NCBI GenBank assembly: GCA_964534665.1
Contig: CAZHRT010000001.1
Span: 76,037 to 140,036, forward strand
DNA from: an uncultured Methanosarcinales archaeon
GTDB lineage: Archaea > Nanobdellota > Nanobdellia > Woesearchaeales > JAHJBD01
Length of the DNA: 64,000 nucleotides
Direction of reading: 5' to 3'
Positions 5,351 to 30,052 of the stretch are shown here, one piece after another (the first letter of the stretch is position 1; each line of letters begins with the position of its first letter). The position numbers and the translations under genes were made by a program. The notes under the pieces are model-generated. The model made no database searches. It saw nothing but the letters and a program-made list of their open reading frames with translations, and was not told the origin of the DNA.

Positions 5351-6051
5351 CTTCTTTTCATTATGTACCTTTCTAATAATTCTTTTTTATGATTTATAGC
5401 TATATATCGAATAACAAACTCACGAAAAAAGGTAATATTCTTAGAAGATAAACTAAATTCTGTAACACACCCTCTGCTATTGAAAGTATTTCCAACAAAC
5501 ACATTTTGTTTTTCTCTGGTTATGGAACTAACACCACACTTCAAGAAATTCTTAATACTCTCTTCTAATTTAAATAATCTTCTCCTGCTATGTACCCTTA
5601 TACAACATTGAGGATATTTTGGCCTCTTAATCCTCACATCACCGTCTCCATCAATTACTCCTGCCAAATATGAACCAAATAATGCAGAGTTCTTCAAAAT
5701 CCAATCCGGTGGATGAACTTGCTTAAAATCTATTTTTAATTTGCAAAATAATTTTAATAAATTTTTGCATCCAAACTTATAATCATATCTCAAAAATCCT
5801 TTTTTATCAGTTAATTTAAACAAACAGCCTTTTAAACCAAAGATCTTTTGCGTAATATTTCTAAATTTATCCTGCATCGAAAGTGATTTTTTCCCAACTC
5901 CTAAAACAACAAAATATCTTTTTCTATTAATGGACTGCACATGTTGCACTTTGAAATAACCATCACTCTGAACAACACCTACCCAATAAGCAAAATCAGG
6001 GCTATTAACGCATCTTTCATAGATTTCTTGATTTAATATCTTTGAATTCAT
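5332..6051 (-). CDS. LAGLIDADG-family homing endonuclease-like protein (two motifs, single-chain type), free-standing
   Basis: Motif 1 FAYWVGVVQSDGYF and motif 2 YLAGVIDGDGDV both keep the catalytic Asp. 3' end overlaps tRNA-His by 19 nt on the opposite strand. Confidence 0.75.
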   Translation of the reverse strand: MNSKILNQEIYERCVNSPDFAYWVGVVQSDGYFKVQHVQSINRKRYFVVLGVGKKSLSMQDKFRNITQKIFGLKGCLFKLTDKKGFLRYDYKFGCKNLLKLFCKLKIDFKQVHPPDWILKNSALFGSYLAGVIDGDGDVRIKRPKYPQCCIRVHSRRRLFKLEESIKNFLKCGVSSITREKQNVFVGNTFNSRGCVTEFSLSSKNITFFREFVIRYIAINHKKELLERYIMKRRVATGI

Positions 6052-8813: not shown

Positions 8814-9875
8814 TTATTTACTAAAAACTAAAACTGCTAATTTCCCCTTACCAACACTAAGCTTTCTTTCCTCTTTTAATTTTAATTTATATTCAGAAGA
8901 AACTTTCTTTAACAAATCTAAGTTACTACCACAAACAACCATTACTCCACCATCTTTCAAGACAAACTCAACTTGATGTAAAAATTCATTATACAGTTTC
9001 TCAATCTGCTTAACATCAGACACCCTATTAACTTCTGGAACTTTTGTAACAATCCTATCAATAGATTTTTCTTTAAATTTAGTATCTAACCATTCTATAT
9101 CAACTTTTGAAAAAGTTATATTTTTATGAACACTTGCAATCTTAGCATTCTTCTTAGAATTGTTTAAATCTAACCATTCAGATGCATAACCATAAACTTC
9201 TAATTTTCCATCTTTGACATCATCTTTGAAATCAAATGAAAATAATTTATTAAAAGCTAATTTATCTTTATTATAATAATTAACACTTAAACCTAAACTA
9301 TAAAGTACTGCTTCAATCGGAATAAGGCCAGACCTACAAAAAGGGTCAACTAAAACATCACCAACTTTAAAACCAGATAATCTAACTAAGCCATAAGCAA
9401 TTGTTCCCCTTATAGAATCTTTATGTCCAAACAACTTATAACTTCTTTTTTGTAAGTCAATCCCAGAAAAATCAATTCCAATATAACATTGATCTTTAAC
9501 AAGATAAGCGAATATAATTGTATCTGGATTATTCAAATCAACCTTTCCCTCGATAAATTCACCAACTTTAGATTCTACTTCATCAAGATCGTTATCAATT
9601 TGAACAGAACTAACCCGAAAAGTACCCGTCAAAGAAAAATCAATATTTTTAACCTGTTTAAAATCATCAAGTGAACTAACTTTAAAATTATCTAATAATA
9701 ACAATACCTTATCTACGCTTTGACATTTATAACTCAACAAACAAAGTTCTTTCTCACTTTTAACATCAAGAATACAAAAACCTTCACCTAAAGAAGCACT
9801 AACACCAATCAATTCTTTAATTTCAAGAGCAGCAACATCTTCAAGGCCTTTAGAAACAATAACTAAACATTTCAT
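8814..9875 (-). CDS. THUMP-domain RNA methyltransferase (Trm11/Trm-G10-like, tRNA guanine-N2 methyltransferase family)
   Basis: N-terminal THUMP-like region, then class I MTase with [15 protein letters not shown] (compare DPMCGSGTIxIEA of UPF0020/PF01170). Confidence 0.7.
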
Positions 9876-12340
9876 TCTGTTACAATCTTAGCAGAAGCAA
9901 CTAACTCATCCCCTTCTGAAAGCCTCATCAACCTAACGCCCTGAGTTGCTCTCCCAATCATTGAAATCCCATTAACAGGAATCCTAATACATATACCTTC
10001 CCTGCTTATCATCATAATGTCATCTTCTTCAGAAACAGATCGAATAGCTCTAACCGGCCCATTCCTATCAGAACAAATAATATTCTTAACACCTACTCCA
10101 CCACGATTAGTTTCACGATATTCAGAAATCTTAGTTCGTTTACCAAAACCATTTTTAGTTACAGTTAACAAAGTTTTATTCTCTGATGCAAACACCATTT
10201 CAATAACTTTATCATCGCCTTTAAGAGTAATTCCCCTCACTCCACCAGCATTCCTACCCATTGCCCTAACCTTACTTTCATTAAATCTTATAGCCATTCC
10301 GTTTTTTGTGGCAATTATAACATCTTTTTTACCATCAGTTAATACAACATTAATTAATTCATCACCTTCGTGTAAAGTACAGGCAATTATCCCAGTGTTT
10401 CTTGGTCTACTAAATTGAGATAGATTAGTTTTCTTAACTACGCCAGTTCTAGTTGCCATAATTAAAAAATGCTCATCATCAAATTCTTTAACAGGAACAT
10501 ATGTACTAATTGTTTCATCATTTTCAAGATTCAATAAATTAACAATTGGTTTACCTTTAGCAATCCTACTGCCTTCAGGAATATTATAAACCTTTAACCA
10601 ATAAACCCTCCCCTTATTTGTAAAAAATAATAAATAAGAATGTGTATTAGCAACAAAAATATCTTCAACAAAATCCTCATCTTTTGTTCCTGCAGCAATA
10701 ACCCCTTTCCCACCACGTTTTTGTTGTTTATATGTTTCAACAGGAACTCTTTTGATATAACCTGAATGACTAATAGTGATTACCATTTCTTCAGGCTTAA
10801 TTAAATCTTCCATATCAATATCCTCATCGCCGTCTTCTGCAATACCTGTCCTTCTTTCATCACCATATTTCTCACGTATTTCAATTAATTCATTTTTTAT
10901 GATATCAAGAATCTTTTGTTCATCAGCTAATATGGTTGTTAATCTTTCAATAAGCTTAACTAATTCATCCAACTCATTTCTAATCTTATCTTGTTCTAAA
11001 GAAGTAATTTTTTGCAATTTCATATCCAAAATAGCATTAGCTTGTTTTTCAGATAATGAAAAATTAGCAATCAATGCTTGCCTAGCTTCTGCAACTGCTT
11101 TACTTTCTTTTAAGATTTTAATTGCTTGATCAATATTATCTAAAGCAATAACAATGCCTTTTAAGATATGCTCTTTATCTTTTGCAGCATTAAGATCAAA
11201 CTCTATCCTTTTCCTAACAACTTCTCTTCTATGATCAATAAAGTGTTGAAGCATCTGTTTTAAATTTAAAACACGTGGCTCATTATCAACCAAAGCAAGC
11301 ATGATAACACCAAAAGTGGTTTGCATTCTACTATGCTTATACAATTGATTCAACAAAACATCTGGATCAGCATTTTGCTTAAGTTCAATCACAACTCGCA
11401 TACCTTCTCTATCAGATTCATCTCTCAAATCAGAAATAGTATCAACTTTCTTATCTCGAACAAGGTTTGCTATTTCCTTTACCATCTCTGATTTATTAAC
11501 CATATAAGGAATTTCTGTAATAATAATTTTCTGCTTATTTTTAACCTCTTCAATATTGGTCTTAGCTCTTAAACGTAATTTACCCCTACCAGAAGTATAT
11601 GCACCAACAATCCCATTTCTACCACAAATTGTTGCACCAGTTGGAAAATCTGGTCCTGTGATACACTCCATTAACTCTCCAACAGTAATCTCAGGATTAT
11701 CCATCTGTTTAATAATACCTTCAACAATTTCATTCATGTTATGTGGAGGTATATTTGTTGCCATACCAACAGCAATACCAGAAGAACCATTTAATAACAA
11801 ATTAGGAAATTTAGCAGGAAGTACAGAAGGTTCTTTAAGACTACTATCAAAATTATCAACCATCTTAACAGTCTTTTTTTCAATGTCATGCAACATTTCC
11901 TCAGACAATTTGTTAAGTTTAGCTTCTGTATACCTCATTGCAGCAGCACGATCACCATCAATACTACCAAAATTACCTTGACCTTGAATTAAAGGATAAC
12001 GAAGAGACCAATTCTGAGCCATCCTAACCATTGAATCATAAACAGCAGAATCTCCATGTGGATGATACTTTCCCAAAACTTCCCCTACAATTCTAGCAGA
12101 CTTTCTAGAAGGCTTATTATGGAACATGCCCATATCATGCATAGCAAACAAAATTCTTCTGTGTACAGGCTTTAAACCGTCTCTAACATCAGGCAAAGCC
12201 CTTCCAACAATAACAGACATAGCATAATCTACATAACTTTGCCTCATTTCATCTTCGATTACACGAGGCACAATATTCTGCTTTTCAGGGGTATTTTCCT
12301 GATTAGATTCTTTGTTATTTTCAACCTGATTTTCATCCAT
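9872..12340 (-). CDS. gyrA: DNA gyrase subunit A
   Basis: [31 protein letters not shown], active-site Tyr region [11 protein letters not shown]-terminal beta-pinwheel repeats. 822 aa. Confidence 0.9.
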
Positions 12341-22284: not shown

Positions 22285-23037
22285 ATGTACATGAAACTTA
22301 CTTTGGCAGAGCCAACTTATCTAAAAGAAAGCATATCAATCATTTCTGAATTAGTAAACGAAGCAAGATTTAAAGTTAGTAAAGAAGCAATTGAACTAGT
22401 TGCAATGGACCCAGCCAATGTGGCCATGGTTATATTTAAACTATTAAGCAGCTGCTTTACAGAATACAATGTTGAAGAAACAACAGAATTAGCAATAAAC
22501 CTTAACAATCTAAAACAGATATTAAGAAGAGCTAGTTCAAACGACATGGTTACTCTAGAACTTAGTGGAGACAACCAACTAAAAATTCAATTGAAAGGTA
22601 ACACAACTAGAACATTTAATCTACCTATAATTGAACTTGAAGATAAAGAACAAAAAATACCTGATTTATCTTTTCCAACAACAATTATGCTTGCATCAAC
22701 AATATTAAACAGCGCTATAGAAGATGCAGACATTGTTGGTGAATCTGTTTCTTTTGAGTCAGAACCTAAAAAGTTTACAATAAAAGCAGAAGGTGAATTA
22801 TCAGCTGCTAAGATAGAAATTGATGAAAGTGAAGATGTCAAAATCAGTGTTGAAGGAGATTCTAAGATAAAATCAAAATACAGTATTGAATATCTTAAAA
22901 AAATGATGAACGGCTCAAAATTATCTGAAAACGTTTCAATCTACTTTAACAAAGACTACCCATTAAAACTAGAATATAAAGCAATAGACAAAGTTATGTT
23001 AAGTTTTATTTTAGCACCAAGGGTAGAAAACGACTAG
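22285..23037 (+). CDS. pcn: DNA polymerase sliding clamp PCNA
   Basis: LKESISIISELVNEARFKVSKEAIELVAMDPANVAMV...NLNNLKQILRR matches archaeal PCNA N-terminus. 250 aa. Confidence 0.85.
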   Translation: MYMKLTLAEPTYLKESISIISELVNEARFKVSKEAIELVAMDPANVAMVIFKLLSSCFTEYNVEETTELAINLNNLKQILRRASSNDMVTLELSGDNQLKIQLKGNTTRTFNLPIIELEDKEQKIPDLSFPTTIMLASTILNSAIEDADIVGESVSFESEPKKFTIKAEGELSAAKIEIDESEDVKISVEGDSKIKSKYSIEYLKKMMNGSKLSENVSIYFNKDYPLKLEYKAIDKVMLSFILAPRVEND

Positions 23038-24407
23038 ATGGCTGTAAATTTTTCTAATTTTTTCTTTGTTTCTTCTAAATCTTTAGGCATCTTATCAGCA
23101 TAATACAAAGCTAATTGGGCAGCATCCTTATTATTAATTTTCCCTTCATTAACAAACCCCTTATTTTTTGCATAACTCAATATTCTATCAGACATAGACT
23201 TTTTATTATCAATCATATCATAAACTGGCCTTATAATTGGGGCGTATCTTTTAGGTGTAACAGACCTAGCAAAGTTAAAAAAACGTTTAACATAATTATA
23301 CATCTCTTTCTTAGAATAACCATCATAAGCACCCCAATATTGAAGTTTGTTTCTTACATAAGAATGTGGTGGTATGTATAAAACATCATTTTCAAGTTTA
23401 AACGCATCTTCTATTCCAAAATCAACAGGCATTACTTCAATAAATTCTCGTTGAATTTTTTTCAAACAAAATTTAAGAAGTACACCAACACCAATAAGAA
23501 TTGAAACAAAATTAACATCCATACCCCTTTGCTCTAACGTACCATGTTTATTAATTTTAATTGGATTCCACCCAATATCTAAATTATAAGGATATAGTTT
23601 AGAGAAATTAACATTAGGTGCTACTTTTTTTACTTCCCTTTTCCATCTATCCCATCTTTTATTTAAACTAGTAAGAATATCTGTTGCTGTTTGTTTATAT
23701 GGGGGTAAGCCACCAAGCTGTTGTAAATTCGCATACACCCCATCCATATACTTTAATTTCTTACCACCACGATAAACTAACATCCTTGTATCTTTTGCAA
23801 AATTTCTACCTTGATAAAATGGTGAAGATTGTGTGAATAATGTTAAAGCCGGGTCTGCCGCAATCTCAAAATTATAAGAAGAAACCATTGTTCGCTTTAA
23901 TTTGCTTTTTTTGTAAAACCTTAATTCTTTCTTTTTCTCATCAAAAACACTTTTAGGTAAAGTATAATGATTATGATACCCAGTAACCCTACAAGTTGTT
24001 TTTGTTTTTTCATCACCAAATATCTTTTGTTTTATCCTATATGTTTGACCATCTTGAATAATGGGATCAAACTTACCTGGATAAGTAGAAAAAGGAAACA
24101 AAGTTAATCCTTTTGATTCACAAATTTCTTGCGCTTTTTGAATGGAATCTATAATATTTAATGCAGGATTATAAGTTTTAATATCAGGATAACATCCAAA
24201 TTCAATCATATTCAAACCTATTTCTTTAGTAACAGGAATATCTGGATACTTTAATTTAAGTTCTGAAATAACTTCTAAAGCCTTATTAGACATTGTACCA
24301 TTAGAATTCAAAATATGAAACTCTGCTTCCTGTCCAGTTTTAGAACGTTTAAGCACTTTTTTCTTATCGCTAAACGATTTATTCACTAATTTCATCTTCA
24401 ATATCAA
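23034..24407 (-). CDS. Carboxylate-amine ligase, glutamate-cysteine ligase family 2 (GCS2/YbdK-like)
   Basis: QEAEFHILNSNG (compare GIELEMQVVN of YbdK), CRVTGYHNHYTL (compare FGQHVHVGC), SSPFYQGRNFAKDTRMLVYRG (compare [20 protein letters not shown]). Confidence 0.75.
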   Translation of the reverse strand: MILKMKLVNKSFSDKKKVLKRSKTGQEAEFHILNSNGTMSNKALEVISELKLKYPDIPVTKEIGLNMIEFGCYPDIKTYNPALNIIDSIQKAQEICESKGLTLFPFSTYPGKFDPIIQDGQTYRIKQKIFGDEKTKTTCRVTGYHNHYTLPKSVFDEKKKELRFYKKSKLKRTMVSSYNFEIAADPALTLFTQSSPFYQGRNFAKDTRMLVYRGGKKLKYMDGVYANLQQLGGLPPYKQTATDILTSLNKRWDRWKREVKKVAPNVNFSKLYPYNLDIGWNPIKINKHGTLEQRGMDVNFVSILIGVGVLLKFCLKKIQREFIEVMPVDFGIEDAFKLENDVLYIPPHSYVRNKLQYWGAYDGYSKKEMYNYVKRFFNFARSVTPKRYAPIIRPVYDMIDNKKSMSDRILSYAKNKGFVNEGKINNKDAAQLALYYADKMPKDLEETKKKLEKFTAI

Positions 24408-25479
24408 ATATTTGGGTTAAATCAGAAGATATCTTCTTTATAGACGTCTTTCTAGACCTTTTTGTCTTCTCAAACATATAAAGTTTCTTGTTAACTTCCA
24501 TAGAAAAAATAAATATATTTGGAAACTTTTGATTCAACCATTTAAGAATATATCCACCATGATAAGGTGTATCAAACATAACAGGAGAGTAACCCATAGA
24601 AACCATCTTAGTCTTCATACCCTTTACAATTGGTTTATAGAACTTAGGAATATACCTAGTTCCAAAACTAATGTTAGGTCGTCCTTTAAGATTTTTCATA
24701 GAATGCCCATCAAAAATAATATTAAAATTATAAGAATCAATTAATTTGGATAATGTAAAATAAAATTCTCTATAGCTCTTATACACATCTTCAGATTCAT
24801 GTTTTGTCAAATTTTCTTTCCAAACTATATCTAACCACTCCTCAGAATTATCAGCATATATTGCTCTATCTAACCCACGATTAAAATCAATAACAAACCT
24901 TGATTGTTTACTATCAATCCATATTCCACTTTTTTCTAACACAATTTTACTATAAATCTTATGAGTGTCAAGATCTTCTTCACCATGCCTTTTATTATCA
25001 GGTATACTAAGCTTTTTCTCAATAGATTTAGGAACCCATGTTCCTGAATGAACTGTTAACAATAAGGTATTAAACGAATTCTTTTTGTAATTATCATAAA
25101 TAATAACGCCCCTTTTTGTAATAGTCATCTTAATATCCTTATAATCAGGATAAAGAAACTCAAGATCTTCTTTAACAATAGAATACAACTTTCTATCTAC
25201 AAAGAAATTTTTAAAATACATTTTATTTCTATCACGATAGAATTCATATAATGTTCCTTGTAAAAATTTACCCAAAACCTTATAGCTCTTAAGCAACGCA
25301 ACAAAATTTAAGTAAGGATCTTCTTCAATAAGATTAACAATCCTATTCATCATCCTAAACAAAAAAAATCTTTTAGATAAACCTACAGTAATTGAAGAAT
25401 TTCCTGGCCTAATCAATATAGGACTTATATTCTCAATAACCTCTCTAATTTTATCCATTTTTCTTAAATATATTAGCAA
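24379..25479 (-). CDS. N-formylglutamate amidohydrolase (FGase)-family zinc hydrolase with about 100-aa N-terminal extension
   Basis: LTVHSGTWVP (compare cEHgg..vP) and IIFDGHSMKNLKGRPNISFGT (compare vDlHSM...dislGt). 29-nt overlap with GCS2 gene. Confidence 0.6.
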   Translation of the reverse strand: MLIYLRKMDKIREVIENISPILIRPGNSSITVGLSKRFFLFRMMNRIVNLIEEDPYLNFVALLKSYKVLGKFLQGTLYEFYRDRNKMYFKNFFVDRKLYSIVKEDLEFLYPDYKDIKMTITKRGVIIYDNYKKNSFNTLLLTVHSGTWVPKSIEKKLSIPDNKRHGEEDLDTHKIYSKIVLEKSGIWIDSKQSRFVIDFNRGLDRAIYADNSEEWLDIVWKENLTKHESEDVYKSYREFYFTLSKLIDSYNFNIIFDGHSMKNLKGRPNISFGTRYIPKFYKPIVKGMKTKMVSMGYSPVMFDTPYHGGYILKWLNQKFPNIFIFSMEVNKKLYMFEKTKRSRKTSIKKISSDLTQIFDIEDEISE

Positions 25480-27232
25480 AAAAACTTAGAATTTTCTTAA
25501 AAAACCCTTGCTTTTCTTGATTATCATCTAATTCAACATTATCTTCTATAACTTCTTCAGTTTCTAATTCTTCTGGTTTAGAATCATCAATATCACCAAC
25601 ATCTTCACCACCAATAGTAAGCGTCTTAACATCTTGAATCTTATATTCATCCCCTTCAAACTCAAAATTAACTAGTGTCTTTAACTCAAACTCATTCCCA
25701 TTATAATCTTCAGGAATAGTTATTGTGTAAGAATATGCTTTTTCTTCTCCAGCAGTATTAAGTGATAACTCAGCAATAAATTCCCCTTCCATCCCATGCC
25801 TTATTTCTGGAGGAATAACTTCAATAACATCAGTATCCACTTGTAAAGATTTAAGATTATTAACAAACACATCTACAGAAAGTTTACTTCCTTTTGATAC
25901 AACACCACTAACTTCTTTTCTAACTTCAAGAACTTTAGGAATAGGAATAACATTAATGGTTTTAACAGCATCAAAATTATACTCAATCTCACCATATATG
26001 TAAGACCCAAACACTTTAACTTCTAATTCCGTTTCAACATCCACTTGAACTGCAACAATGTTCTTAACAACATTATGATTGCTTCCAGGCTTTAATGACT
26101 TACCTTTAGTAATCTCAGACTCATAATTATCACTAACAATCGAAGAATCTATACCAGATATATGTTTATTACCCTTATTTTCTAATTCAATTTCAACATC
26201 AAATGAGTCCCCGCCTTTAATTTTCTCAGGCATTGTAATCTTCGCCCAAACTTCAGATATGCCCACACCAAATGATTCATAAACCTCCCCAGTAAAATCA
26301 CTTTTAAGAATTGTTAAATCAATATTAGAATTTATTTTATGCTCCCCTGCCTTTACAGATTTAATATTCACTATAAACTCTTTTATAGATTCTGAATTCA
26401 TAGTACCAGAATATACATAAGTTTTATCATCTTCTTTTGTAATATCTTGCGACCAACTAATACCTCGAACAAAACTAGGTAACTTAATCTCAAGTCGGTT
26501 AATTTTCATAACAGCAGTTTCTTTATTTTCAACAAAAACGGAATATTTAATCTCTTCACCTGGCGCAGGTGTATTAGTAGATAAGTTATTAGTTATTTCA
26601 TAAGGTACAAAAACAGAAATGGTCTCTAATTCAGATTTTTTTACTATTTTCTCACCTTCGTCCTTATAAGAAATTTCTGCTTTAGATTCAAATTCTGTTA
26701 AAATTAATGGTTTTATTACATAAGTGATTGTTTTTGTATCACCAGCAGTCAAAAAACCTTCAACAAAAATTTTATTACTTTTAGTATTACCCCTAACTAT
26801 CTTAAATTCACTTGGAAAAACATCTTCATAAACAAAATCTCTTGCTGTTGCATCACCTTCATTAGTTAATAAAACCTCTACAGTAACCTCTTCATTTATA
26901 GATGGACTAGTCTTACTAAAAGACCTTTCAATTAAAATATCCGGAGCTTTTGTTCTAACAATAACTTCAACCCCTTCGTCACTATATCCTAAAAAACAAG
27001 ATTTAATCTGACCATACATCTGACATTCATCTATTGCAAGATACCCTCCTGAATTATCTACTGTAACTAAAGCTTCTTCCCTACCAGAATCATATCTTAC
27101 ACCAATTGTAATTCCCTCAACTGTAACTTCATCTTTATTTTCAATTACCCCACTATAGAAAGTTTTTGCACTAACTGTTGATATCAACAATAAAAAAACA
27201 ATAAACAAAATCACCCTTTTCATAATAATCAT
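25451..27232 (-). CDS. Secreted protein with signal peptide and repeated CARDB/DUF11-like Ig-fold domains
   Basis: MKRVILFIVFLLLISTVSA signal. EEVTVEVLLTNEGDATARDFVYEDVF and similar beta-rich repeats. 29-nt overlap with FGase-like gene. Confidence 0.55.
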   Translation of the reverse strand: MIIMKRVILFIVFLLLISTVSAKTFYSGVIENKDEVTVEGITIGVRYDSGREEALVTVDNSGGYLAIDECQMYGQIKSCFLGYSDEGVEVIVRTKAPDILIERSFSKTSPSINEEVTVEVLLTNEGDATARDFVYEDVFPSEFKIVRGNTKSNKIFVEGFLTAGDTKTITYVIKPLILTEFESKAEISYKDEGEKIVKKSELETISVFVPYEITNNLSTNTPAPGEEIKYSVFVENKETAVMKINRLEIKLPSFVRGISWSQDITKEDDKTYVYSGTMNSESIKEFIVNIKSVKAGEHKINSNIDLTILKSDFTGEVYESFGVGISEVWAKITMPEKIKGGDSFDVEIELENKGNKHISGIDSSIVSDNYESEITKGKSLKPGSNHNVVKNIVAVQVDVETELEVKVFGSYIYGEIEYNFDAVKTINVIPIPKVLEVRKEVSGVVSKGSKLSVDVFVNNLKSLQVDTDVIEVIPPEIRHGMEGEFIAELSLNTAGEEKAYSYTITIPEDYNGNEFELKTLVNFEFEGDEYKIQDVKTLTIGGEDVGDIDDSKPEELETEEVIEDNVELDDNQEKQGFFKKILSFFANIFKKNG

Positions 27233-27268
27233 CCTGAATAAAAAAGTATATAAATATATTGATTAAAA

Positions 27269-27697
27269 ATGAGTGTATTGACAGATATAAATATTTTAAA
27301 GGAATGGGCATACAATTACATAAAAAATAAAGATGCTTTTCTAAAAAACATTATTTCAATAGATAATGCACCTACTGGACTACTTGTTAAATACAAAAAT
27401 AAAGACCAAATAATTATAACATCTGAGAAATTAGACATTAAATTATTAAAAAAGAAAAAAGAAAGTGATAATCTATTTATATTTACATACAATACTAAAA
27501 ACAATTTAGAATCATTAATTTCTATGTGGGATTCAATAATTAAATATAAGTCACTTTCAATTTGTTTTGTAAATCAAGAATCAAAACTTGAAAAAAGATG
27601 GATTATCCATCCATATACACATAATAAGATAAGTGAAAGATCAGCATTAAAACAAGGCCTAATGTCATTATTTCAAACAGTCGAAACAAAACATTAA
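27269..27697 (+). CDS. Hypothetical protein
   Basis: 142 aa, no recognised motif. Confidence 0.4.
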   Translation: MSVLTDINILKEWAYNYIKNKDAFLKNIISIDNAPTGLLVKYKNKDQIIITSEKLDIKLLKKKKESDNLFIFTYNTKNNLESLISMWDSIIKYKSLSICFVNQESKLEKRWIIHPYTHNKISERSALKQGLMSLFQTVETKH

Positions 27698-28723: not shown

Positions 28724-30052
28724 ATGCCTAAAAAAGGAATTGTACCGTTATATTATGTTGTAATGGCACACCCAAATGATGGAACTGTTGTTCCAATGCC
28801 TCCATCACAGTTTGCTATTGCTGAAGTAGCTTCACGTACAAGACAAGAATTAACAGATTTATTAGCACAAATTAACACAAGATTCTTAGATGGTTCAAAC
28901 GATTTACCATTTCTAAAACAAGCATGGGAACAAGATTTCAGAGGTCAAAAAGCAGAAAGCGCTTTTACTATTGCAGACCTAGAACATGCAGTAAAATGTG
29001 AATTAAGACCTGCTGCAAGACATGTTGTTTATAGCGGAGAGAGTATTCCGTCTTATAATTTAGTTAGACAAGAAGCATTTGGTAATGGGGAATTAGAAAC
29101 AAGAAAAGGTATGATGAAATCAGCATCACATCACGACCAAGCATCATTATCTATAAAAGCAATTCAAAGTGGTGTAGGAAAAGAAGCAGGAAAGTATAGG
29201 GATGTTACATTTAGGGCACCATTCCTAATAGAAGATGGTGGTGAAGTATTCATTAATCCTGCATACCTTGCAGATTGCACTTGTAGGGCACACAGTAAAC
29301 AAGTTGCTAGAGATTTAAGAACACCACAAAGAAATACCTATTTAGTATGCCACCACATTGCTGCTGGAATAAGAGAATTATATCTAGAAAAAGAAAGAAT
29401 TGTTCCGATAAGAATTAAAGGGTTAAGCAATAGAAGTTTAAGAGGACAAAGAGGAGCAGTTCTTAACCCATATAACTTACATGAAAATCCAGAACTTGCT
29501 TTAGAAGCAGTTGTAAGAAGATTTGTATTTGGCCATAAACTTAGCGATATAGACAGATCATTAATGGATGAAGACATTTTCTCAACCCAATATCAAGATT
29601 TAAGAAATTCTAAACCTGGACAATTAAGAAGAGAAGTTGTTCAATCTACACAAAACTTTCCAGGAGTATATGGCAAAATTAAAGAAGAAATGATCTCTGC
29701 ACTTACAGAACATGGATATGAATATTTAGGAAATGCAATTTCATTTAGAGACACAGAATATGAAACAGTCTCAAAAGTATTCGGAAATAGGCATAGTGGC
29801 AAAATGATACATATACTATATGATCCTTCAGTTGGTATAAACAGCCCTCATTTCTTATTAAAACTCAGACCAGGACAAGTAGACACCCAATATGGTGATC
29901 CTTTAAATCAACTGCCAGACAACCCAGTAGCGTGTGTAAACAGGCCCTTTTTAGAAACAGATGATATGACTGGTGTTGATAGAGTATCTTTAGTAAAAAC
30001 ACCAGTTAGCATACTAACAGTAAATGCCAGAAAACAATTATATACAGAATAA
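28724..30052 (+). CDS. Hypothetical protein (442 aa), compositionally atypical (R/Q/H/A-rich, locally higher GC)
   Basis: MPKKGIVPLYYVVMAHPNDGTVVPMPPSQF... no recognised motif. Directly adjacent to a tRNA gene. Confidence 0.5.
   Translation: MPKKGIVPLYYVVMAHPNDGTVVPMPPSQFAIAEVASRTRQELTDLLAQINTRFLDGSNDLPFLKQAWEQDFRGQKAESAFTIADLEHAVKCELRPAARHVVYSGESIPSYNLVRQEAFGNGELETRKGMMKSASHHDQASLSIKAIQSGVGKEAGKYRDVTFRAPFLIEDGGEVFINPAYLADCTCRAHSKQVARDLRTPQRNTYLVCHHIAAGIRELYLEKERIVPIRIKGLSNRSLRGQRGAVLNPYNLHENPELALEAVVRRFVFGHKLSDIDRSLMDEDIFSTQYQDLRNSKPGQLRREVVQSTQNFPGVYGKIKEEMISALTEHGYEYLGNAISFRDTEYETVSKVFGNRHSGKMIHILYDPSVGINSPHFLLKLRPGQVDTQYGDPLNQLPDNPVACVNRPFLETDDMTGVDRVSLVKTPVSILTVNARKQLYTE

Follow-up and report, generated by a model that had tools for sequence, protein, structure and literature searches.

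Within a 64,000-nucleotide (nt) stretch of contig CAZHRT010000001.1 (positions 76,037 to 140,036 of the forward strand; GenBank assembly GCA_964534665.1), hereafter the window, three minus-strand open reading frames (ORFs) lie head-to-tail and encode a surface protein with a signal-peptide-like N-terminus, an N-formylglutamate amidohydrolase (FGase)-like hydrolase and a putative carboxylate-amine ligase (Table 1). The assembly is labelled as an uncultured Methanosarcinales archaeon, its GTDB lineage is Woesearchaeales and its closest public relatives carry Nanoarchaeota or Woesearchaeota labels, which makes the source a DPANN archaeon. The window has a G+C content of about 31%. Genes for PCNA and for a beta-CASP nuclease of the archaeal RNase J type are among the neighbours; the ligase gene, with its stop codon at 23034-23036, runs 4 nt into the 3' end of the PCNA gene, which is convergent with it.

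An earlier reading of this DNA (the original prediction) had placed the three ORFs at 27232 to 25451, 25479 to 24379 and 24407 to 23034, and the ORF listing confirmed these outer coordinates. It had also chained them by 29-nt overlaps; the genes do overlap, but that figure arose because longest-ORF calling took the most upstream TTG (24407 and 25479). ATG codons at 24395 (MKLVNKS...) for the ligase and 25458 (MDKIREV...) for the hydrolase agree with homologue N-termini, and gene calls on identical public contigs give proteins of 453, 359 and 590 amino acids (aa) for the ligase, hydrolase and secreted protein, respectively. From these starts the genes overlap by 17 nt and 8 nt, junctions of the tight kind that is usual in operons.

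For the secreted gene the probable start is the second ATG (27223), in agreement with the public gene call of 590 aa. A TATA-like element, TTTATATA, lies at 27247-27254, about 27 nt upstream of that codon (TATA-like boxes were read by eye throughout), a position that fits an archaeal promoter of a leaderless transcript and makes the element a putative promoter. Co-transcription of all three genes in this strain is possible. In the last 50 nt of the secreted gene (25459-25510, minus strand), just upstream of the hydrolase ATG, T6 and T7 runs are followed by AATATATTTAA; judging by sequence, these could serve as an internal archaeal terminator and promoter, uncoupling the enzyme pair from the secreted gene.

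Table 1 Coordinates of the ligase, hydrolase and surface-protein genes and their junctions.
Feature	Coordinates	Strand	Basis
Putative YbdK/GCS2-class carboxylate-amine ligase, divergent, ATP-dependent by class, 453 aa, ATG at 24395	23034..24395	-	
FGase-fold amidohydrolase, 359 aa, ATG at 25458	24379..25458	-	
Family-specific N-terminal domain of the hydrolase, residues 1-128	25075..25458	-	
Signal-peptide DUF11/CARDB-like repeat surface protein, 590-593 aa	25451..27232	-	
Overlap of hydrolase stop and ligase start, 17 nt	24379..24395	-	Sequence and calls on identical contigs
Overlap of secreted-protein stop and hydrolase start, 8 nt (ATGGATAA)	25451..25458	-	Sequence and gene calls
Intergenic spacer to divergent 142-aa gene, 36 nt	27233..27268	-	Sequence

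Sequence searches of Pfam, NCBIfam and PDB with the ligase alone gave nothing usable: Pfam returned no match even at E < 0.1, and NCBIfam scores were 12-13 bits against cut-offs of 176-427. In the absence of a direct Pfam match, the GCS2 assignment therefore rests on profile and structure evidence, which was needed to place the protein. At least 285 homologues were found, almost all with DPANN labels. Among 27 sampled homologues, 13 matched PF04107 (best E 8e-8) and 23 matched the YbdK-family model TIGR02050 (best E 8e-11), weakly in both cases. A profile of the ligase family matched YbdK in PDB (1R8G, E 2e-5), and hhalign aligned the family to Escherichia coli YbdK over 228 columns (86.7% probability, E 4e-6), with the motifs GxExE, E..E, HxH, SSP..G and GT(L/V)ExRxMD in register. 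The AlphaFold2 model (predicted local distance difference test score 92.5) has the catalytic fold of the glutamate-cysteine ligase (GCL)/glutamine synthetase (GS) type; the top PDB matches in Foldseek were 2GWC, 1TT4 and 1R8G (probability 1.0, E 1e-10, template-modelling score 0.57-0.72), and a Dop chain was among the weak ones. Residues E23, E25, E58, E65, H141, H143, E288 and R290 are invariant in 27 ligase sequences, and the invariant family motifs ExE, E58/E65, HxH and GTLEQRGMD align to the YbdK core. Going by general knowledge of the superfamily, we take these acidic, histidine and arginine residues to serve metal, ATP and acyl-phosphate chemistry.

The window ligase has the fold and core motifs of YbdK and plant GCL (E. 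coli 1R8G, Salmonella 1TT4, plant 2GWC; PF04107, TIGR02050), but at an identity of only about 10-15%. It falls under every curated threshold and exceeds YbdK in length by about 80 residues, its C-terminal region being helical. Its family also differs from YbdK and GCL in forming a separate clade, with matches almost all DPANN-labelled, and in being systematically paired with an FGase-like gene. Profiles and the modelled fold indicate that the protein is a divergent, catalytically intact-looking relative within the GCL/YbdK carboxylate-amine ligase class. The GCS2/YbdK identity originally proposed thus stands at the level of profile and fold, but not as a Pfam or NCBIfam match above threshold.

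The hydrolase aligns with PF05013 along the full length of the profile (E 1.5e-19; 71.5 bits, cut-off 28.9), and its model folds like the FGases 2ODF (Atu2144) and 2Q7S, so that the FGase assignment of the middle gene was borne out. The fold search succeeded where PDB searches with the sequence and with a profile gave no significant match. Among the next structural tier are CCP5, MpaA and poly-gamma-glutamate hydrolase, all of which cut glutamyl bonds. Nine positions (H137, D162, R187, D191, N193, R194, D250, H252 and E321) are invariant in 29 hydrolase sequences and, following the general motif pattern of the family, are presumably metal-binding or catalytic. A marginal match to the NCBIfam model DS1_2 (E 0.003) was seen in two homologues. 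A role as a true HutG in histidine catabolism was rejected: the TIGR02017 score is 20.7 bits against a cut-off of 278.75, so the protein is not a HutG orthologue within the FGase family, and histidine-utilisation genes are absent from the neighbourhood, which holds PCNA, RNase J, a membrane protein and others.

About 220 residues of the hydrolase align to PF05013, and residues 1-128 are therefore extra; the N-terminal extension first put at about 100 aa is real and somewhat longer. The extension is strongly conserved, with 25 positions invariant across 12 diverse members, yet it matched no Pfam family, and an exhaustive profile search of 1.84 billion representative proteins returned 18 matching clusters only. 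One weak multi-stretch match (E 1e-5) aside, all of these matches fall at the protein N-terminus, some in proteins of full-length size (336-388 aa) and the others in short ones. Solved FGases (2Q7S, 2ODF) lack this 128-aa domain, and structural matches to them leave it uncovered. The hydrolase model is confident for residues 60-128 and not for residues 1-45. On these comparisons, residues 1-128 are a family-restricted domain.

Linkage of the two enzyme genes was examined in two sets of loci, one retrieved with the ligase and the other with the FGase-like protein, which together comprise 111 non-identical loci. With one genome scanned for each species, the ligase yielded 65 non-identical loci that encode a homologue of it, 52 of them informative, meaning that an FGase-like gene was found or that at least 1,500 nt of flank was available on both sides. 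In 33 of these 52 an FGase-like gene is adjacent, in four arrangements: hydrolase then ligase with a gap of at most 300 nt (19 loci), ligase then hydrolase (6), the two genes divergent (4) and one gene inserted between them (4). Adjacency follows relatedness to the window ligase, being found in 16/16 loci at 55% identity or more, 11/17 at 45-55% and 6/19 below 45%. In the reciprocal set, metagenome contigs scanned with the hydrolase, 22 of 27 informative loci have the ligase next to it. Over both sets, hydrolase-first order with a gap of at most 300 nt accounts for 38 of the 55 loci that have both genes. The module occurs in DPANN-labelled Woesearchaeota, Nanoarchaeota, Iainarchaeum and Aenigmatarchaeota. 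Adjacency that has been kept through rearrangement is typical of functionally linked genes; the proposal that the two work together gains from this conservation across DPANN in several orientations, and the linkage, judged by gene order, is not coincidental.

Some contigs carrying a DPANN-type ligase are labelled Aminicenantes, Patescibacteria, Sulfurovum, Gammaproteobacteria or Methanosarcinales (L009, L030, L046, L054, L056 and many 'uncultured Methanosarcinales' loci). These bacterial and Methanosarcinales labels probably reflect mis-binning or mislabelling rather than the real distribution.

The secreted protein presents a different picture. Described at first as CARDB-like, it does have a signal-peptide-like N-terminus by inspection, but CARDB is only a borderline match (23.5 bits against 22.7) and DUF11 is the stronger one (E 2e-11). 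The original prediction was that the enzyme pair modifies or matures this co-encoded protein, or makes a linked surface or host-directed compound, and the layout speaks for it: a single promoter-like element precedes three genes that stand head-to-tail and overlap by 8 and 17 nt, an arrangement that recurs on a sister-strain contig (L115), where the close homologue again stands ahead of the FGase-like gene. Comparative genomics nevertheless largely refutes this model, which we regard as very improbable. The secreted gene occurs in none of the 111 non-identical loci. Among 5.8 billion proteins, the secreted protein has one close homologue (83% identity), that of L115, and one distant homologue (24%). 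A dedicated modification system would be expected to keep enzyme and substrate genes together; here they co-occur only in the sister strain. The proposed substrate is exported, whereas neither enzyme has a visible signal peptide. In most genomes the genes upstream of the pair are varied and lie in either orientation, with a TATA-like box about 25-35 nt upstream of the hydrolase, so the pair appears to have its own promoter-like elements.

In the closest syntenic relative (L004) the ligase and hydrolase are 78% and 76% identical to those of the window, and the gene order is the same: a 192-aa membrane protein, a homologue of the 142-aa protein, hydrolase, ligase, PCNA and RNase J. The promoter sequence is kept ahead of the pair (a 50-nt alignment at 86% identity, with another 17 nt just downstream at 94%), and in place of the 1.75 kb of coding sequence at 27181-25429 of the window L004 has about 70 nt. 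At the site of the DUF11 gene (L004 5632-5718) stands a 28-codon ORF (MKVLVLFLLLIILICLVYSSLGVKNGKD, then a stop codon) with a signal-peptide-like start and a "KNGKD" end; with the promoter and roughly the initial 50 nt retained, this remnant looks like the product of a deletion of about 1.7 kb of the gene body. L004 thus has the pair without the surface protein gene. In a related genome (L116), the distant DUF11 homologue adjoins a counterpart of the 142-aa gene, and neither enzyme gene lies near it. The 142-aa gene of the window (27269-27697, plus strand) is divergent from the DUF11 gene, and its L116 homologue (5527-5952, 27% identity) is co-directional with it; the DUF11 gene may be tied to the 142-aa gene rather than to the enzymes.

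Between L115 and the window the secreted protein is 83% identical, against 94% for the hydrolase and 97% for the 192-aa protein, and the surface protein is therefore the fastest-evolving gene product of the block. Gene content across relatives indicates that the secreted gene is a lineage-specific, fast-evolving neighbour that shares the upstream promoter and is not part of the conserved module, and by the same comparison the secreted protein is not the substrate of the pair. Co-occurrence in other genomes, on which the predicted linkage depended, thus holds for ligase and hydrolase but not for the secreted gene, whose linkage appears local and coincidental. A functional tie confined to this strain and L115 is still conceivable.

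A third conserved gene was sought by all-against-all clustering of neighbouring ORFs of at least 60 aa in the 111 loci, and none was present in more than 8 loci. The sporadic neighbours that do recur are an ATP-grasp protein of about 445 aa (8 loci), a RimK-like ATP-grasp protein, an M20 peptidase and Amidohydro_2, all of them amide-bond enzymes; none of the ATP-grasp, M20 or Amidohydro_2 partners occurs in the 64-kb window. The ~445-aa ATP-grasp matches the families GSP_synth, CP_ATPgrasp_2 and GSH_synth_ATP (the ATP-binding domain of eukaryotic glutathione synthase). It lies beside or between ligase and hydrolase in seven of its eight loci (L006, L008, L018, L022, L036, L039 at 9329-10663, L058 and L072) and three genes off in L036, which suggests a multi-step, peptide-like product in some lineages. 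Amidohydro_2 (PF04909) accompanies the ligase solely in loci without the FGase-like gene (6 versus 0 loci, Fisher p 0.011; L022, L039, L047, L049, L058 and L063), a small sample that hints at an alternative hydrolase replacing the FGase-like partner.

With moderate confidence, and by analogy with the relatives of both enzymes, we propose that ligase and hydrolase form a two-gene module that would make and remove, or recycle, one class of amide bond, of gamma-glutamyl type, on a small molecule or short peptide. With ATP, the ligase would convert a carboxylate, of which the glutamate gamma-carboxyl is the likeliest, into an acyl-phosphate and then couple it to an amine; the hydrolase, a metallo-amidohydrolase, would cleave an N-acyl- or gamma-glutamyl-type amide. 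Both enzymes are apparently cytoplasmic. Such a module would resemble the gamma-glutamylation pathways of bacteria, or a system in which a gamma-glutamyl compound is made and turned over. We favour gamma-glutamyl chemistry because relatives of the ligase use the glutamate gamma-carboxyl and the hydrolase family cleaves N-acyl and gamma-glutamyl amides.

Several points weigh against this reading. The window ligase misses Pfam GCS2, and family matches fall far below the NCBIfam cut-offs. About one third of informative ligase loci have no FGase-like gene in the flanks examined, and linkage thins out among the most distant ligase homologues. In both this strain and L115 the end of the secreted gene runs over the hydrolase start, and the 64-kb window holds no glutathione-synthase-like ATP-grasp or other partner. 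The substrate is assigned by analogy. Finally, a ligase and a hydrolase acting on one bond with no enzymes between them would run a futile cycle, unless they are regulated or act on different molecules.

Known ligase-hydrolase systems offer partial parallels to the proposed gamma-glutamyl module. For the ethanolamine gamma-glutamylation pathway, which begins with a GS-type ligase, a PF05013 protein has been proposed as the gamma-glutamylglycine amidohydrolase of the closing step, a predicted role assigned from bioinformatic and transcriptional analysis (PMC9397018, PMC6529630). As proposed for the window pair, the gamma-glutamylation pathways (Streptomyces coelicolor GlnA4 and SCO1615, Chromohalobacter salexigens ethanolamine and E. 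coli PuuA/PuuD) combine an ATP-dependent GS-superfamily ligase, which gamma-glutamylates an amine, with an amidohydrolase that later removes glutamate. Their ligases, however, are PF00120 glutamine-synthetase-type proteins whereas the window ligase is GCS2-like, dehydrogenases act between ligation and hydrolysis whereas none is conserved in the 111 neighbourhoods here, and their hosts are free-living bacteria that catabolise amines. Of a PuuA/GlnA4-type pathway, then, only the PF05013 hydrolase component is matched. GshA-GshB likewise has a GCL-class ligase, and an ATP-grasp lies near the ligase in the eight related loci; there a hydrolase is not needed, whereas here the hydrolase is the regular partner and the ATP-grasp is rare.

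If both enzymes act on the same glutamyl amide bond, they have this logic in common with pupylation by PafA and Dop, and the pair could be a writer and eraser of a reversible amide modification, such as glutamylation, on an unlinked cytoplasmic protein, in the manner of PafA/Dop or of the TTLL ligases and CCP deglutamylases of tubulin, with the N-terminal domain recognising the target or a partner. Writer/eraser systems classically show this layout, a ligase plus a hydrolase uninterrupted by metabolic enzymes; in fold the hydrolase is akin to carboxypeptidases, the deglutamylase CCP5 among them, the GS/GCL-type fold of the ligase is also that of PafA and Dop, a Dop chain having been among the structural matches, and the hydrolase carries a conserved extra domain. 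In pupylation, though, both enzymes have one fold and the Pup tag gene is adjacent, whereas here the hydrolase has the FGase fold, and no conserved small ORF (18-59 aa, within 600 nt of the pair) was found except identical ones common to two or three contigs. A Pup-like tag or precursor gene is thus not found with the pair, nor is a conserved candidate target in the neighbourhood, and the nearest relatives of both enzymes, in sequence and in structure, act on small molecules. We consider this explanation unlikely.

The futile cycle would disappear if the two reactions were sequential. In a host-dependent organism the hydrolase could act first, on an N-acyl amino acid or a peptide that the cell has scavenged, and so free glutamate or an amine; the ligase could use the product, for example in making gamma-glutamylcysteine or some other gamma-glutamyl compound to serve as a low-molecular-weight thiol or a storage form. 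The prevailing hydrolase-then-ligase order suits such salvage, as does the glutathione-synthase/GSP-synthase-like ATP-grasp seen near the ligase in 8 loci; GCS2 enzymes are gamma-glutamylcysteine ligases in haloarchaea and plants, and GshA-family matches have been reported in DPANN (PMC7278568). Yet the neighbourhood has no conserved genes related to thiols or transport, the ATP-grasp, itself rare, is missing from the window, the hydrolase scores far below the HutG equivalog cut-off and the identity of the substrate is pure inference. Salvage is therefore an explanation to which we give limited credence, as a rather improbable alternative to the making and turnover of a gamma-glutamyl compound.

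A defence-system or viral origin was also considered and rejected: none of the three proteins matched a PADLOC defence model at E < 0.1, and no relatives of the genes were found on viral contigs.

Both enzyme superfamilies were already known, as was the logic of a ligase plus a hydrolase. What is new is the combination of a GCS2-class with an FGase-class enzyme, its restriction to DPANN-labelled sequences (a few contigs being labelled otherwise) and the family-specific N-terminal domain. No literature pairing a GCS2/carboxylate-amine ligase with an FGase was found, with a 2009 amidoligase survey outside the coverage and an earlier prediction there possible. DPANN archaea have very small genomes with few recognisable biosynthetic enzymes. 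The module has been kept across several DPANN lineages despite such tiny genomes and therefore likely does something that hosts cannot supply. More speculatively, and with considerable doubt, it may be a DPANN-specific gamma-glutamyl-type amide system that provides a new route to a low-molecular-weight compound (for example a thiol or gamma-glutamylcysteine) or carries out reversible protein glutamylation, with the N-terminal domain docking the hydrolase to the ligase or to a target. Both enzymes are soluble, are well modelled and keep their catalytic motifs, which makes the pair a well-defined target for biochemistry. The analysis also defines a new family-restricted protein domain and corrects the unsupported idea of a surface protein modified non-ribosomally by its operon partners.

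Elsewhere in the window, a 442-aa ORF (28724-30052, plus strand) has no Pfam match and a G+C content of 0.34, against about 0.29 around it. It carries a CxC...CxH (SWIM-like) Cys/His motif and is found in the identical contigs; upstream of the 192-aa gene L004 has instead two other ORFs (226 and 245 aa). No tRNA genes were found in the 64-kb window. Strongly negative GC skew marks two parts of the window, the first 28 kb or so and the part beyond about 52 kb, while the skew is positive at about 36-52 kb, a pattern that may reflect blocks of co-oriented genes.

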